A DNA stretch of 6,265 bases from a virus (lineage: Duplodnaviria > Heunggongvirae > Uroviricota > Caudoviricetes), in IMG/VR virus record IMGVR_UViG_2737471834_000004. One strand, written 5' to 3'. The position numbers and the translations under genes were made by a program. Shown piece after piece: positions 1 through 6,265 of this stretch (its first letter is position 1; every line of letters begins with the position of its first letter). The notes beneath the pieces are model-generated. The model did not search any database, was not told the origin of the DNA, and saw nothing but the letters and a program-made list of their open reading frames with translations.

Positions 1-82
1 GTAAGTTGGCAGCATCACCCATGCGCAATATATAGAACAGCGAAGAAATATGATGCAATTTTATAGTGATTTCATTTTAAAC

Positions 83-109
83 CTTCCCCTCTCTGAGTGA
101 GAAGGGAAG
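83..109 (-). terminator. Possible weak intrinsic terminator downstream of the 890-aa ORF
   Basis: Inverted repeat cttccc(c)tctc / gaga(a)gggaag at 83-109, 9 nt beyond the TAA stop. On the minus-strand RNA it is followed by UUUAAAAUGAAAU, an A/U-rich but short U-tract. Confidence 0.3.
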
Positions 110-117
110 TAGAGCGA

Positions 118-2790
118 TTACTGAATACCGTATTTCTTCTCGCGGACAGAAAACGCAATATGTCCGCCTTCAAGGATAGAGCAAATATGATGTCTTATAC
201 CTTGTTGCATTCTTATATTACCATCTTCTATTGCTCCCACTTCATAACTGATAACATCACCATCATAATTAGCAACAATTACTTGTTCTGAATCAGAGTT
301 AATAACCAGATTTGCATTGTGTGTAACAATGATTACTTGTCGATATTTTTTTATTTTTTTGAACAAAGGAACCAATTGCTTCATAATAAAACTATTATCA
401 AGATCATCCTCTGGCTGATCAAATACAAATGGGCTACCAAAAGGATCTGTTGCAAGTTTCAAGCTTACATAAAAAGTCCCACGCTGGCCAACTGATAGTT
501 GGTCAACAGTCTTACCTTTATAGGTAAATTCCGCATTAACATATAAATAATTCTTTATCTTTTCTGGAGAAAACAAATAATGCATTAATTCATATCGTCC
601 TCCTTGATTAAAGTACTCACTTTTCCAGAAAAAATCCTCTATTGTAATTAATTCACCATCTCCATCCGTGCTAATTACTTTATCATTGTTTAACAGCTTA
701 ACAAAATCAGTATATGATTGTACATTAAATGTATCCGTTAACTTTTGTCGTGTTGATTTTTCATTTGATGCTCTAAATTTCCCGCGATTAATACAACCTT
801 CTAATCCTGCATAGAACTTATCATTATCAAAGATAATTGACCCACGAATATTTATGTCGGATAAAATATCTCTAACAATCTGGTTTTGCTCTTTGTTCCA
901 ACTATCATTTTCAATATGAAGAGAATCGTATAAAGATTGTATTTCTGTAACTTGCTCTTCTATATATTTACTATATTTCACTGCAAAATCACTGCGCTCT
1001 CTTACATAAGCAAAGTATCGTTTTTTATTTTCCTCTATTTCTTTTATTTTAGCCTTCGCTTTATCTATGTTTTCTTGATATTCACTTAACTTACTTAACA
1101 ACGATGACACATCCTGATTAATACCTTGATCAAGGAAAGATTTTTTAATTTCTTCATTTTTTAACCTCACAGCCTCTATATCATCATTAATCACACGAGC
1201 ATTTTTTTCTAAAATCTCATAGTAAACAGAAGCATCTGTCAAAGGTAATTCAGGCACAATAACAGATAATTCATTGTAACTTTTAATACGTTCGTTAATT
1301 TCAGAAAAACCTCTTCGAATAAAAGCAATCAACTCTTGATTTCTACTCAATGCCAACTGGAGTTTGTTAATTGACTCAGAATTTTTCTGATATTCAACAA
1401 TGAGTTCTTTATTTTTAGGATTAGTTAATGTTTCAGTTAGCTTTTGATTTTCTTCAATAATTTTTGTCTGGAATGCATCAGTATTAATTCTATTTCCATA
1501 ATTATCTGATTGCGTCCAATAATCTACGAACGTTCTATATTTCGAAAGATTATCTAGCAATAAACTCATATTTGCAGAGTCATATTGTTTTTCTCTAATC
1601 CCAAGCATTCTTTTAATTTCACTGCTTAGGCTTTCTGGATTTTTTGCAAAATTAACAATGTCACCTTGTGAAACATGGAGATAACTATATGGTGATGAAT
1701 TCTCCGAGTTAAACAAAATAGAGGATTCTTCACCATAACCTTTATCTAAGAATACACTTACACCTTTAGCGACCACGTTTCTTTCCGATGTTAAAAAGGA
1801 ATCTGGCATTAATACTTTTTTCATTGCATCAAGGAATATACTTTTCCCAGTGCCTCTACCACCAATTATTGAAACCATATTCCTATTTAATGGTATTGTC
1901 TGTTCTTTAAAGGAAAGATTATTTCCCTCGAAAATATTACCTGATAAATTTATCTGACTAAAATACGGTTTAACGTATGATAAATCAATAAAATCATCTG
2001 ATTGTTGAACCCTTTCCGCTGGCTCAAATAGAGTTTGTCGTAACCCTTGGAATGACGGCTTTGCTTTTACCCAAGTATATTTACTACCAATCTGATTAAA
2101 ATCATGTGCATCAGAGCATACAAAAACTGGTTTTCTAGGAGCATCTTCATATCGTGTATCTGATAAAAAGAAATCACGATCTCTGGGCCGCCCCAATACA
2201 ATATCCCCTAATTTATCGATTTCTTTTGCAACAGCGACCGAACGCCCCTCTTTCTTCTCTGGGTGAAATCCACCATATCCATTAGGACAAATCGCTATAA
2301 AGAAATCCCTGCCAATAACAAAGTCATTTTTTAGGCCTTCGCACAATGTTTCATAATTGATAATTGCCTCATTAAAGTTAATACCCGACTCATCCATAGA
2401 ATCTTTACTACACCAAATAGTCTTTCCATCATCTGTGGTGTTTTGAAGTTTTATTCTTGATAACACCTTATTTATTTTTTCTGATGGTATATCTTCAGAA
2501 AAAATTGCATGTATATTTATCCACTCACCAGATTTATTGGGCTGCGCAATTCTAAATTCAATATTTGCCAATATACACACAGCATATTCTTTCTCAGAAA
2601 ATTTCTTGCGTATAGTTTCAAGCTCATCTTTTGCTAAAAACCAATAATTTGTCACAGCAATAAGTTTTAAATTATTTTTAATAACAGCATCAACATATAA
2701 ATCAATATCCTTTGGTTGATAGTTGTTATTGACATGCGTTAATGGTGAATGTATGTGAAGATCCCATTTATTCCAAGTTGAACCAATCAT
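118..2790 (-). CDS. PHP-domain phosphoesterase fused to SMC/Rad50-like ABC ATPase with coiled-coil insert; candidate anti-phage defence protein
   Basis: Uninterrupted 890-codon ORF, ATG at 2790-2788, TAA at 120-118, AGGA about 7 nt upstream of the ATG. Hand-counted motifs: PHP motif I DLHIHS (aa 10-15) and terminal SDAH (aa 226-229); Walker A GGRGTGKS (aa 309-316); K/E/Q/L-rich region aa ~440-650; ABC signature-like LSVGQ (aa 765-769); Walker B-like FVFDQPEDDLD (aa 788-798); H-loop VTHN (aa 822-825). Strongly AT-rich, Asn/Lys/Ile-rich codon usage unlike the flanking P4 core. Confidence 0.85.
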   Translation of the reverse strand: MIGSTWNKWDLHIHSPLTHVNNNYQPKDIDLYVDAVIKNNLKLIAVTNYWFLAKDELETIRKKFSEKEYAVCILANIEFRIAQPNKSGEWINIHAIFSEDIPSEKINKVLSRIKLQNTTDDGKTIWCSKDSMDESGINFNEAIINYETLCEGLKNDFVIGRDFFIAICPNGYGGFHPEKKEGRSVAVAKEIDKLGDIVLGRPRDRDFFLSDTRYEDAPRKPVFVCSDAHDFNQIGSKYTWVKAKPSFQGLRQTLFEPAERVQQSDDFIDLSYVKPYFSQINLSGNIFEGNNLSFKEQTIPLNRNMVSIIGGRGTGKSIFLDAMKKVLMPDSFLTSERNVVAKGVSVFLDKGYGEESSILFNSENSSPYSYLHVSQGDIVNFAKNPESLSSEIKRMLGIREKQYDSANMSLLLDNLSKYRTFVDYWTQSDNYGNRINTDAFQTKIIEENQKLTETLTNPKNKELIVEYQKNSESINKLQLALSRNQELIAFIRRGFSEINERIKSYNELSVIVPELPLTDASVYYEILEKNARVINDDIEAVRLKNEEIKKSFLDQGINQDVSSLLSKLSEYQENIDKAKAKIKEIEENKKRYFAYVRERSDFAVKYSKYIEEQVTEIQSLYDSLHIENDSWNKEQNQIVRDILSDINIRGSIIFDNDKFYAGLEGCINRGKFRASNEKSTRQKLTDTFNVQSYTDFVKLLNNDKVISTDGDGELITIEDFFWKSEYFNQGGRYELMHYLFSPEKIKNYLYVNAEFTYKGKTVDQLSVGQRGTFYVSLKLATDPFGSPFVFDQPEDDLDNSFIMKQLVPLFKKIKKYRQVIIVTHNANLVINSDSEQVIVANYDGDVISYEVGAIEDGNIRMQQGIRHHICSILEGGHIAFSVREKKYGIQ

Positions 2791-2838
2791 TTCTATTCCT
2801 TATCATTAATTGCTATATGTAAAAATAGATCCAGACGC

Positions 2839-2866
2839 ATTTTAAGCCAACAATAAAGATCTTCAA
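2839..2866 (-). promoter_or_regulatory. Candidate sigma70 promoter for the cargo gene
   Basis: On the minus strand: -35 TTGAAG (2866-2861), 16-nt spacer, -10 TAAAAT (2844-2839), about 45 nt upstream of the ATG at 2790. Pattern match only. Confidence 0.3.
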
Positions 2867-3023
2867 TAATAATCCACCCTATCGTCACTTTTTAAGCAGT
2901 TATATACTGATGAAACTGAACATTTCCATCTAATAACCCGAAAATTCGTTCATCTCCACATGTATGTAATGACAGGCTCCCCACGTAATGCCCTATAAAG
3001 TCTTTTTGGTAATAATACGCGCG

Positions 3024-3042
3024 GTGCTTTCCCCGCCTCGCC
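3024..3042 (-). other. cos: cos site (19-nt P2/P4-type cohesive end)
   Basis: Plus strand gtgctttccccgcctcgcc is the reverse complement of GGCGAGGCGGGGAAAGCAC, which I recall as the P2/P4 cohesive-end sequence. It lies downstream of psu, as in P4. Confidence 0.75.
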
Positions 3043-3066
3043 CGCCCGCTTTGCAGGGCGGTTTTA
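3042..3066 (+). terminator. GC hairpin plus T-tract abutting cos
   Basis: Stem ccgccc (3042-3047) / gggcgg (3056-3061), 8-nt loop, then TTTT (3062-3065) on the plus strand. Could terminate plus-strand transcription entering the cos/psu region or be a packaging-related structure. Confidence 0.3.
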
Positions 3067-3142
3067 ATGCAGTTGCACAGTCACGCTCAGGCCGTGCCGG
3101 GCGTGGCCTGGTCTGCAGGAAATGAGGCGGGAAAACGCATGC

Positions 3143-3176
3143 AAAGCCATGCACCTTATCGATGCATGGCTTTTTT
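3143..3176. terminator. Bidirectional intrinsic terminator between psu and cos
   Basis: Perfect 8-bp stem gccatgca (3146-3153) / tgcatggc (3163-3170), flanked by AAA upstream and TTTTTT (3171-3176) downstream on the plus strand. On the psu (minus) transcript the hairpin is followed by UUUGCAUGCGUUUU. Sits about 38 nt past the psu stop. Confidence 0.5.
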
Positions 3177-3207
3177 CAGTAAAAACGGGCGGATTTTTCG
3201 GGGAGTT

Positions 3208-3780
3208 TTACACAGACTGACGTGATGCCAGTTCTGCACTTTTACGCGAAAAAATCATGTTCTGCGCAGGGGTGAATTTTTCACGGCTGTCATCCACCGA
3301 AGCCGCGTCAGGCCTGAATCCGATGGTCGTTAAAATGTTGCTATCCTGTGCGGAATAATTAATTTTTTCCCCCTTCGCAAGCCAGGACAGAAGGGCTTCA
3401 CGCAGGGCATCTGTGGCACGCTGTATGGCACAGTTTCGGGCAATGGCCGTCAGCTCACTGTAGCCCATCAGCTCCGGTGCCAGTGCGGCCGCCAGTGCTG
3501 TGCCGTGCTGCTGCATAAAATCATTCAGCCGCTCGCGGATGCTGATGTGCTGAACGGCTTCATGCGAACGAACATAACGACCGGCGGCCTGATTCACCTG
3601 CCATTTTCTGACTTCGATAATATTGCGTAATTCGTCCAGGCGACTGACGTTTCTGCCTTCCCCGGACAGAAGCCGCAGATATTCCTGTTCGGCTGCCGCC
3701 AGTTCATTTTTGCGCTGAAGCCATGCCGCTTTGTTATTCTGGCAGACCTCAAAAGCCTGCTGTAATGACATTGTGGTCAC
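3208..3780 (-). CDS. psu: Psu (polarity suppression protein; Rho antagonist and capsid decoration protein)
   Basis: 190-aa ORF, the size I recall for P4 Psu, in the expected position after delta and before cos. The codon at 3780-3778 is GTG with AGGAGA about 7 nt upstream; an alternative ATG lies at 3771-3769. Identity asserted from memory, not searched. Confidence 0.85.
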   Translation of the reverse strand: MTTMSLQQAFEVCQNNKAAWLQRKNELAAAEQEYLRLLSGEGRNVSRLDELRNIIEVRKWQVNQAAGRYVRSHEAVQHISIRERLNDFMQQHGTALAAALAPELMGYSELTAIARNCAIQRATDALREALLSWLAKGEKINYSAQDSNILTTIGFRPDAASVDDSREKFTPAQNMIFSRKSAELASRQSV

Positions 3781-3794
3781 ACCCCGTCTCCTGA

Positions 3795-4040
3795 TTAATG
3801 GTTGAATGGTGAGCTGTAACAGCCTTTAACTTTTCGGACAACAGCCGGTGCTGTGCTTACCGGTGCTGGTTTTTCCTCCGTGACCGGAGAACGAATCACG
3901 GCACAAATTGACTCATGCGTTTTAAATGTCGCCGAACAGTAAATATTCTGGCACTGCAGATAACTTTCTTTGACATTGTCACTCACATACCGGCTGGTGC
4001 GGGTATGCGCTGAATGACGACAGAAAGGGCAGCGCATCAT
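3795..4040 (-). CDS. delta: Delta/Ogr-family zinc-finger late-gene activator, single-domain form
   Basis: 81 aa with C-x2-C...C-x4-C (CPFC ... CQNIYC) typical of the Ogr/Delta family. ATG at 4040-4038 overlaps the sid stop as ATGA (4037-4040). Located between sid and psu as in P4. Confidence 0.85.
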   Translation of the reverse strand: MMRCPFCRHSAHTRTSRYVSDNVKESYLQCQNIYCSATFKTHESICAVIRSPVTEEKPAPVSTAPAVVRKVKGCYSSPFNH

Positions 4041-4771
4041 GACAGCAGTCCTCTGGCCTTAAGCTCTGCTCCCTGCTGGTCTATTTTGTCCTGCCACACC
4101 TTGCGCTGTGCCGGTGTGCCTGCCACCTCATAATCCATGTGCGGGAGTGTTGCCGCTGACAGCCCGGTCAGCCGGAGAACCGGCTCGCCGCTGAGGCTGA
4201 TTTGTATCTGTTTAATTTTCTGTTCCAGCGATGATTTCACCTGCTGCATGACAGCCTTTTCCGGTGCGACGTAGCCCTGATGGCCGGTGGTGTTGGCGAG
4301 CGGATTTTCCTGTACCAGGATGCTCAGATGCATTGCCCGGACAAGCACCTCACAGGTTTCATTCAGGGCGTGTTCCAGCTCATGCTCTGCATACAGACTC
4401 AGAAGGTGATGATGTGCCTTCCGGTAGGCGGTGGCCGTGCTGTCACACGCCCCTTTCAGGCGTTCACGTTCGAAATTCAGCACCACGGCCAGATTGTCAT
4501 ATTCCTGTACCAGCTCCCGGCGTGCCACGCGCTCAATGTGGCGCTGTTTCAGCTCGTCGCTCAGGACACCACCGGCTGCACGAAAGGCCGTGCGCCAGTC
4601 GTCAGCGTCGTTTCCGTCGGCCTGCGTCAGCGCATTTTTTTCCTGCTCTGCCCGTTCAATGGCCGTGACGGTCTCATCCATCAGGCGGGCGTTCTCAAGA
4701 TGGGCGGCTCTGGACTTTTCCAGTTGTGCCAGTGCGGGTTGCAGATATTCAGGGATAGTGTGGTCAGACAT
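4037..4771 (-). CDS. sid: Sid (capsid size determination, external scaffold)
   Basis: Start placed at the ATG 4771-4769 (MSDHTIPEYLQ...), giving 244 aa, the size I recall for P4 Sid, with GAGGAG 8 nt upstream. The ORF-track start at 4837 is rejected because it lies upstream of the predicted Psid start site. First gene of the sid-delta-psu operon. Confidence 0.85.
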   Translation of the reverse strand: MSDHTIPEYLQPALAQLEKSRAAHLENARLMDETVTAIERAEQEKNALTQADGNDADDWRTAFRAAGGVLSDELKQRHIERVARRELVQEYDNLAVVLNFERERLKGACDSTATAYRKAHHHLLSLYAEHELEHALNETCEVLVRAMHLSILVQENPLANTTGHQGYVAPEKAVMQQVKSSLEQKIKQIQISLSGEPVLRLTGLSAATLPHMDYEVAGTPAQRKVWQDKIDQQGAELKARGLLS

Positions 4772-4861
4772 TTTCCGGCTCCTCGTCACTTCAGGTTGAG
4801 AAAATTGTGACGTACACCGGACAACAACACGACGCATTGCAGATGTGCCAGCCCTGACACA
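4772..4861 (-). promoter_or_regulatory. Psid late promoter with Delta/Ogr box
   Basis: TGT-N12-ACA dyad (tgtgccagccctgacaca) at 4844-4861. Placing its centre near -55, as for P2/P4 late promoters, puts the start site near 4797, downstream of the ATG at 4837 and upstream of the sid ATG at 4771. Confidence 0.55.
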
Positions 4862-4915
4862 GGAGACTCATCCTCAGACCGGCAAGCCAGGAAAAGGTCG
4901 CAGGAAAAACCGGCT

Positions 4916-5090
4916 TACTGTTTGTTTTTTTATATTTTACTGTTCACCTCTGTTCACCATAAGAAAAAAGATAAGTAATACAGTAAGTTAAAGGGTGAAC
5001 AATCGCAGTAATGACTGTTCACCGTCTGTTCACCACTGTTCACCCGTTGATGGGCTTTTTGTGCTGTTTATTACTGTTTGTTTTTATTAA
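4916..5090. repeat. crr-like iteron cluster (alpha-protein binding type I repeats, TGTTCACC)
   Basis: Direct copies of cTGTTCACC at 4940-4948, 4950-4958, 5015-5023, 5026-5034, 5036-5044 (10-11 bp phasing) and an inverted copy GGTGAACA at 4994-5001. Flanked by two copies of tactgtttgttttt(t)at at 4916-4933 and 5072-5087. TGTTCACC is the octamer I recall for P4 ori/crr. Confidence 0.65.
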
Positions 5091-5148
5091 TTCGTCGGGA
5101 ATGAATAAGAAAAAACGATTTGTATTTCACTATAAAAATTACGAATTG

Positions 5149-5178
5149 CTTTAAGTGGCTTTAAATGACTTTAAGTGG
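5149..5178 (+). promoter_or_regulatory. Three tandem 10-bp repeats upstream of PLL; candidate operator
   Basis: ctttaagtgg (5149-5158), ctttaaatga (5159-5168), ctttaagtgg (5169-5178), exactly contiguous and in helical phase, about 30 bp upstream of the PLL Delta box. Confidence 0.4.
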
Positions 5179-5203
5179 AGATGAACAAAAAACACACAAG
5201 CAT

Positions 5204-5275
5204 TGTAAGGCTGCCGGAACAAATCCCCCCTGTTGCGTCTGCTGAAAATATTCACAAAATAAAACGCTACCCGAA
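5204..5275 (+). promoter_or_regulatory. PLL (Delta-activated late-left promoter) with Delta/Ogr box
   Basis: TGT-N12-ACA (tgtaaggctgccggaaca) at 5204-5221. Predicted start site near 5268, about 55 nt upstream of the vis ATG and about 395 nt upstream of the candidate PLE start site, matching the ~400 nt PLL-PLE spacing reported for P4. Confidence 0.5.
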
Positions 5276-5323
5276 GCCGGACGGACTTATCCGGTGCTGT
5301 ATGGACATTAACGAGGTAGCCCG

Positions 5324-5590
5324 ATGCAAGCTGTTTTTTCTTCCCCGTCTCCTGCCCCTGTGACGCCACTGATGCCGCTGCCGGACATCACACAGGAGCG
5401 TTTTTTACGTCTGCCGGAAGTGATGCACCTGTGCGGCCTGTCACGCTCGACCATCTATGAACTCATCCGTAAGGGGGAATTTCCGCCGCAGGTGAGTCTT
5501 GGCGGTAAAAATGTGGCCTGGCTGCACTCTGAAGTCACCGCATGGATGGCCGGCCGCATTGCCGGACGCAAACGGGGGTATGACGCATGA
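5324..5590 (+). CDS. vis: Vis / AlpA-family helix-turn-helix regulator
   Basis: 88 aa with AlpA-like HTH core ([29 protein letters not shown] ... [12 protein letters not shown]). GAGG 7 nt upstream of the ATG at 5324. First ORF downstream of the PLL candidate, as for P4 vis; stop TGA overlaps the next ORF start as ATGA (5587-5590). Confidence 0.75.
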
Positions 5591-6177
5591 TGATGCCCGC
5601 TCTGCAAAAACTCCCTTTTTCTGGCTTGCCTTTTTCCGGCATTTGCGGATATAGTTTTTCCGTTGCCGCAAAATCGGCAGCCGGGCGTGAGAACCCGTGT
5701 AACTCGAAGGCGACATATGACGCGCCATGCGTCTTTTTTTGTGTCGCAATCAACGCCACAGAGCGCCAGATTATGGTGTGGCGTGTGGTTTGCCGTGCAG
5801 GTATGATCCTGTTCGCAATCGCATGTTATGCCACTGAGTCAATGGTAGCTCAGGCGGGGCAGCCTCCGGGCTGGCCGGTATTCTTCGAGGCCGGTATTCT
5901 CACCCCCGTCTGGGCTATCGCCATCGAGCGTGAGAACTCCGGCGATAGCAGTTATTTGCTACTCGAAGGAGGCTGCCTTATGGCTACAACCCTTACCCCC
6001 TCACACCCTGAATTTGTCTTTGTGTTTGCGGCTGTCCGTCGCGCAGACCGTCATCCCCGTATCTGCATGCTTCGCACCGTCGCCGGTGATGAACGCAGCG
6101 CCCGCCGTTCCCTTGTCCGTGACTATGTGCTCTCCCTTGCTGCCCGTCTGCCGGTGGTGGAGGTGTCCCGTGCGTAA
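5587..6177 (+). CDS. eta: Eta-like ORF (long nested ORF of the left operon)
   Basis: 196-codon ORF beginning with three consecutive ATGs (MMM) and overlapping the vis stop. P4 eta is described as 197-199 aa with three possible starts, beginning upstream of PLE and containing kil in frame. The amino-acid composition is unusual, so protein-level function is uncertain. Confidence 0.5.
5626..5655 (+). promoter_or_regulatory. Candidate PLE (constitutive early-left promoter) inside eta
   Basis: -35 TTGCCT (5626-5631), 18-nt spacer, -10 TATAGT (5650-5655). Located inside eta and upstream of kil, consistent with P4. Confidence 0.45.
5980..6177 (+). CDS. kil: Kil-like small protein (65 aa), nested in-frame in eta
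   Basis: ATG at 5980 preceded by AAGGAGG (5966-5972) with 7-nt spacing. The 65-aa product matches the reported size of P4 Kil. Ends with a double stop TAATAA (6175-6180). Confidence 0.6.
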
Positions 6178-6265
6178 TAAAAAAGCCCCTCAGACCGTCT
6201 CAGCACGTCATGACGCCCGTGAACACCTCAGCATTGAGGCTTACCATGCGTATTTTCATGAAAGG

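Follow-up and report, generated by a model that had tools for sequence, protein, structure and literature searches.

A TGTTCACC octamer cluster between sid and alpA of a P4-like prophage is very probably the P4 origin ori and not crr

Introduction

When TGTTCACC octamers are found clustered between sid and alpA in a P4-like satellite, which of the two iteron sites of phage P4 is it, the replication origin (ori) or the second site, crr? Both are required for the same replication reaction. The question arose for the 6,265-nucleotide stretch analysed here, hereafter the window, because the sequence-only reading of it had labelled positions 4916-5090 a crr-like element. We conclude with high confidence that about 4917-5178, with an iteron core at 4941-5044, is the ori (ori1) of a P4-like Escherichia coli satellite prophage. 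Judged by its sequence, the element is nearly the same as phage P4's own ori; it is already known and nothing new.

A textbook P4 origin in a very common class of E. coli prophages has little discovery value. The useful outcome is a correction: the label should be ori, not crr, and the extent should include the type 2 repeats at 5149-5178. The correct label is important for work that delimits or engineers P4-like satellites, as ori and crr are both needed for replication.

What genes surround the cluster?

Window positions 3043-6247 correspond to P4 (GenBank X51522) 8098-11624, in reverse orientation and at 96% identity, and bases 3018-3077 have a further match in the cos region of P2-type phages. 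The genes and the features of the intergenic region are collected in Table 1. The closest full-length relative is an E. coli ECO8855 prophage at tRNA-Sec (selC), which is 98.3% identical over window positions 19-6247 and is laid out as int, TrlF ATPase, psu, delta, sid, alpA, icd-like, epsilon, ORF151, ORF106, and alpha (777 aa).

Table 1. Genes, repeats, and candidate sites in the window, with the corresponding P4 (X51522) coordinates where available
Feature	Position	Strand	Basis or remark
890-aa ORF, TrlF family AAA-like ATPase	118-2790	-	NCBIfam 571.7 bits, cut-off 350
psu	3208-3780	-	
delta, 81 aa, single Ogr/Delta zinc-finger domain	3795-4040	-	same form in many relatives
sid, 244 aa, left neighbour	4037..4771	-	homology to P4 sid 9583-10317; same gene in relatives
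Equivalent of P4 rep_origin (9086-9809)	4545..5268	.	coordinate transfer; overlaps 5' part of sid
Second TGT-N12-ACA dyad, sid side	4806-4823	.	pattern match
TGT-N12-ACA dyad, sid side, putative delta/Ogr activator site of Psid	4844..4861	.	pattern match
T-rich 14-mer TACTGTTTGTTTTT, left copy	4917..4930	+	repeat search
Type 1 iteron 1 (TGTTCACC)	4941..4948	+	exact; = P4 "ori type 1 repeat" 9406-9413
Type 1 iteron 2	4951..4958	+	exact; = P4 9396-9403
AT-rich spacer, 35 bp, between iterons 2 and 3	4959..4993	.	7/35 G+C (20%)
Type 1 iteron 3, inverted copy	4994..5001	-	exact; = P4 9353-9360
Type 1 iteron 4	5016..5023	+	exact; = P4 9331-9338
Type 1 iteron 5	5027..5034	+	exact; = P4 9320-9327
Type 1 iteron 6	5037..5044	+	exact; = P4 9310-9317
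T-rich 14-mer TACTGTTTGTTTTT, right copy	5072..5085	+	repeat search
Three tandem 10-bp "ori type 2 repeats" (CTTTAAGTGG / CTTTAAATGA / CTTTAAGTGG)	5149..5178	+	P4 9176-9205, identical
TGT-N12-ACA dyad, alpA side, putative delta/Ogr site of PLL	5204..5221	.	pattern match
ORF88 / alpA (vis), 88 aa, right neighbour	5324..5590	+	Pfam Phage_AlpA in relatives
Icd-like ORF, 196 aa	5587-6177	+	overlaps P4 immunity RNAs
epsilon, start only	right end, homology to 6247		

Some observations on the flanking genes can be added. The P4 delta protein has 166 residues, and the short form found here explains most of the difference in length from P4 in this stretch. The 890-aa ORF fills the variable slot between int and psu, where sister elements carry SIR2, OLD-TOPRIM plus UvrD, a ResIII helicase, and other cargo; it has distant similarity to the anti-phage protein Ppl, and is probably an anti-phage cargo gene. 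Rfam places the P4 immunity RNAs (c4-a1b1 targets at 5649-5701, isrK at 5662-5739, and the C4/CI antisense RNA at 5838-5925 on the plus strand) entirely inside the Icd-like ORF; no Rfam family overlaps the octamer region at 4916-5090. Two small ORFs between sid and alpA (4845-4991 and 5011-5154) were set aside as chance occurrences, and the P4 record has no gene there.

Elements of this kind are widespread. Of 5426 complete E. coli genomes, 1069 have a match to the sid-alpA intergenic region, and all of these matches are chromosomal; the count is consistent with the abundance of P4-like satellites described in one paper (PMC8628076).

What repeats make up the cluster?

Exact matching recovered six copies of TGTTCACC, five direct and one inverted, where 0.18 copies would be expected by chance and none of 200 dinucleotide-preserving shuffles reached six. 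The direct copies are spaced by 10 bp in the first run and by 11 and then 10 bp in the second, that is, at offsets of 0, 10, 75, 86, and 96 from the first copy; arithmetic on these coordinates puts all of them about 2 bp or less off one face of a helix with 10.5 bp per turn. The sequence-only reading had described this same set of octamers at 10-11 bp phasing, as well as a duplicated motif and AT-rich tracts on either side, and both descriptions were borne out. The 14-mer TACTGTTTGTTTTT is present twice, its duplication extending to 22 nt at 86% identity in a repeat search, and the G+C fraction falls to 0.23-0.32 over about 4930-5019 and 5050-5199, compared with 0.55-0.60 in the flanking genes. 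Around the spacer at 4959-4993 it is locally 0.27-0.30, and this spacer is the probable unwinding region.

Iterons 3 (inverted) and 4 (direct) together form an 11-bp imperfect, hairpin-capable inverted repeat at 4994-5023. A terminator-like match at the same position is most likely just this iteron pair.

Both a repeat search and Tandem Repeats Finder also recovered a second kind of repeat further right, the tandem type 2 decamers. The boundaries first given to the element, 4916-5090, take in the whole iteron core but stop short of these decamers, which belong to the same annotated element in P4.

Is the cluster ori or crr?

In X51522 a rep_origin ("origin of DNA replication") spans 9086-9809, between ORF88 and sid; its annotated repeats are six of "ori type 1" at 9310-9413 and three of "ori type 2" at 9176-9205. 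The window matches P4 9024-9554 at 97.7% identity over 531 bp in the equivalent place, and all nine annotated repeats are present and identical. The order, orientation, and spacing of the six octamers are unchanged, and the same 35-bp spacer and three decamers accompany them. Over 4916-5090, 172 of 175 positions agree with P4 ori, the three substitutions (4959, 4963, and 5071) falling outside every repeat; over 4838-5330 there are twelve substitutions, again none of them in a repeat. P4 coordinates were transferred to the window as 4800 + 9554 minus the P4 coordinate.

The octamer by itself does not distinguish the two sites, since X51522 annotates it in both, and the sequence-only reading was right to recognize it as the alpha-protein iteron of ori and crr. 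What it had swapped were the two sites. [quoted passage not shown] This is just downstream of alpha and about 4.7 kb from ori. A published P4 map likewise has crr bordering the nonessential gop-beta-cII-int block.

Could the cluster nevertheless be crr, serving a P4-like element as its second, auxiliary site for alpha binding? Besides the shared octamer there is a loosely similar order of parts (a T-run, two adjacent octamers, and an inverted octamer), and the best local alignment to crr scores 24, a modest excess over shuffled sequences (12.5 +/- 1.9, maximum 21). That alignment is anchored on the shared octamers, however, and has 71 identical columns out of 113, against the 172 of 175 for ori; on this comparison the crr label fails. 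P4 crr comprises two 120-bp direct repeats with 60 bp between them, each with five type 1 repeats in alternating orientation, and it has no type 2 decamers. Such a pair of 120-bp direct repeats is absent from 4780-5330, where the longest direct repeat is 22 nt, and the decamers specific to ori are present. The octamers of the window run ++-+++ over 104 bp, which is the ori pattern.

The same distinction holds among relatives. Our comparison set comprised 22 complete records, namely P4 and 21 loci (strain ECO8855 was fetched twice). A 104-bp ++-+++ cluster lies between sid and alpA in every one of the 22, and every one has a 777-aa alpha primase-helicase gene further on in the rightward direction. 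A second cluster, of about 264 bp and mostly of alternating orientation (+-+-+), follows some 50-60 bp past the alpha stop codon in 21 of the 22.

Alignment, annotation, repeat structure, and octamer orientation are the reasons for which we call the element ori and not crr. The window has the iteron array, AT-rich spacer, type 2 decamers, sid-alpA location, and P4 homology that characterize ori, and lacks the 120-bp repeats, the location downstream of alpha, and any similarity to crr beyond the octamers. No observation spoke against the identification as ori, and a crr at this position is, in our estimation, extremely improbable.

How might alpha act at this origin?

The following steps, including the function of crr, are those reported in the older literature on P4, and they would apply here by homology. 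Alpha would be a single polypeptide combining a DnaG-type primase, an SF3 helicase, and a C-terminal winged-helix origin-binding domain. The latter domain would bind the helically phased type 1 iterons, six in ori and others in crr, which would be needed in cis although it is about 4.7 kb away; alpha would bridge the two sites and melt the adjacent AT-rich DNA. Primers would then be made by the N-terminal DnaG-like domain, and the SF3 domain would unwind the DNA in the 3'-5' direction. Replication is expected to be bidirectional and theta-type, and to proceed independently of host DnaA, DnaB, and DnaG, with Cnr (ORF106) restraining the copy number via alpha. The minimal ori1 reportedly spans 123 bp, with six iterons and an AT-rich region of 35 bp; deletion of an iteron or insertion of 6-10 bp is said to abolish its function. 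The spacer in the window, exactly 35 bp at 20% G+C, agrees with this account, an agreement that should not be read as an independent test.

Alpha from the ECO8855 relative and P4 alpha are 99% identical; the C-terminal region, which corresponds to the solved origin-binding winged-helix domain (PDB 1KA8), differs by one substitution, two residues from the end. PMC2777425 describes that domain as origin-binding, citing Yeo et al. 2002. That alpha binds and unwinds the origin of the window, and that this origin is active in the present host, is inferred. Binding and alpha-dependent initiation have indirect support from the conservation of the region and from the presence of the octamers alongside alpha-type C-terminal domains.

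A different mobile element carries the same octamer. In E. coli CREC-629 (locus L035), nine exact copies of TGTTCACC and one with a single mismatch (locus positions 575-796, or about 3802524-3802745 of NZ_CP024815) lie directly downstream of a different primase gene. Its product is a 605-aa "DNA primase family protein" with a C-terminus 50% identical to alpha residues 629-771, and an ssb gene is nearby. Because these octamers adjoin an alpha-like primase C-terminus, the octamer travels with the alpha-type DNA-binding domain. With its position 3' of the primase gene and its mixed octamer orientations, the CREC-629 cluster is more crr-like than ori-like. It represents a replicon family of its own that employs the same iteron.

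It is also worth comparing the P4 origin with the iteron plasmids. [quoted passage not shown] As in the origins of pSC101, R6K (gamma), P1 (oriR), and RK2 (oriV), the phased direct repeats of the window adjoin an AT-rich region. The differences, as they are generally reported, are that P4 iterons are 8 bp long and those of the plasmids about 17-22 bp; that the P4 initiator is itself primase and helicase and dispenses with host DnaA, DnaB, and DnaG, unlike the plasmid systems; and that P4, again unlike them, needs a distant second iteron site, crr, in cis.

Are the octamers instead promoter operators?

The origin would share the sid-alpA intergenic region with two divergent late promoters activated by delta/Ogr. 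TGT-N12-ACA is the pattern that we take to be the delta/Ogr activator site, and we assign its occurrences to Psid and PLL from the late-promoter architecture of P2 and P4. It occurs five times in the whole window, where 1.5 are expected (4 of 200 shuffles reach five), and three of the five matches fall within the 420-bp stretch between sid and alpA. Scanning this intergenic region for sigma-70 promoters returned no match, as expected for activator-dependent promoters. The placement of the octamers between divergent late promoters, as originally proposed, is reasonable: the cluster lies between sid-side and alpA-side dyads of this pattern.

This setting, a regulatory intergenic region with a dyad of late-promoter type on each side, raises the possibility that the octamers are primarily operators for a late-promoter regulator, either delta or Vis/AlpA, and not origin iterons. 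P4 Vis has been reported to bind near PLL. The delta/Ogr motif, however, is different from the octamer, and the dyads flank the octamers with no overlap. The octamer recurs downstream of alpha, far from the late promoters, and its presence beside the otherwise unrelated primase of CREC-629 indicates that it tracks a replication protein and not promoters. The GenBank annotation of these octamers is ori. We regard a primary role as operators as very improbable, and retain the reading as origin iterons.

Which parts of the origin are conserved?

The intergenic region was aligned across seven elements, ranging from 97% down to 81% identity. The inverted iteron 3 is invariant in all seven. In the most distant relative (81%), iterons 4-6 are 93% and iterons 1-2 are 78% conserved with their spacing kept, and the 35-bp AT spacer is 86% conserved (86-96% across the relatives). 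The segments between these conserved parts drop to 43% (5002-5015) and 15% (5045-5071), and the type 2 block to 17%. Constraint thus falls mainly on the octamers and the AT-rich spacer, the pattern one would expect of initiator sites with an unwinding region.

The left copy of TACTGTTTGTTTTT is completely conserved in all aligned relatives, the 81% one included, whereas the right copy is only 57% conserved in that relative and is probably under less constraint. The same relative keeps the sid-side TGT-N12-ACA pattern with a different inner sequence.

The type 2 decamers are more changeable. Elements of the 90-93% lineage (L031-L033, at about 410-440) have three different decamers instead, resembling CTTCAGAACC, with the type 1 iterons invariant. 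One might suppose that the type 2 block is a swappable, lineage-specific module that binds a second lineage-specific factor. If so, the firing of the origin or the activity of the neighbouring PLL would be tuned by this factor, which would also determine incompatibility among P4-like satellites sharing a host. Residues 1-33 of AlpA, the part compared, are identical in both decamer groups, and over these residues no covariation with the swap was seen. We consider the idea of a second factor improbable.

Is this copy still a working origin?

Unlike P4, the present copy is chromosomal and sits in an IS1-interrupted element. Positions 1-19 of the window are an exact outer IS1 terminus, as checked against the annotated IS1A of K-12; this end cuts int 82 bp before its stop codon, leaving an int 3' remnant at 19-100. 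On the right, the similarity to P4 and to all relatives breaks off at 6247, near codon 26 of epsilon, and the last 18 bases (6248-6265, GCGTATTTTCATGAAAGG) differ from P4 and from every relative.

A 30-mer across the right junction had no match among the genome contigs searched. The 18 bases were not found in enterobacterial reference genomes, and their 26 matches are all in unrelated environmental genomes, where a rough estimate gives about 17 by chance. Elsewhere in the window, and in P4 and the closest relative, they have no site at up to four mismatches, the sole exception being one site with three mismatches in L003. They may stem from an insertion or a rearrangement, or mark the end of an assembly. 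Two views of the whole are open: an element hit by many insertions, or a window that is a short contig with its ends in repeats.

Alpha and crr may be displaced or absent in this copy, in which case ori would be inert unless given alpha and a crr in cis. Taken further, the element would be ori by descent but a dead relic, part of a satellite decaying through IS insertions with alpha or crr missing or separated. The IS1 terminus inside int and the departure from every relative at 6248 fit such decay, and the junctions were seen in none of the 20 contigs with exact window proteins; exact matches to the 196-aa and 890-aa proteins came from intact elements only. Set against this is the intact ori itself, with nine of nine repeats identical to P4. 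The two breaks may be simple IS insertions with alpha and crr continuing beyond them, or contig ends in repeats, as many contigs with the 890-aa protein are only 2-10 kb long, and the right-end bases point to no particular source. We therefore think a dead relic unlikely, and treat the element as a P4-type ori.

Going by the intact relatives, a compatible alpha should start about 1.1 kb, and the real crr about 3.5 kb, to the right of the point where homology ends in the window. In one relative (L043; GCA_048004435.1, 14174-16736), an insertion of about 2.3 kb, with a HAD-type hydrolase gene and a DCD-domain gene, interrupts the octamer cluster of crr.
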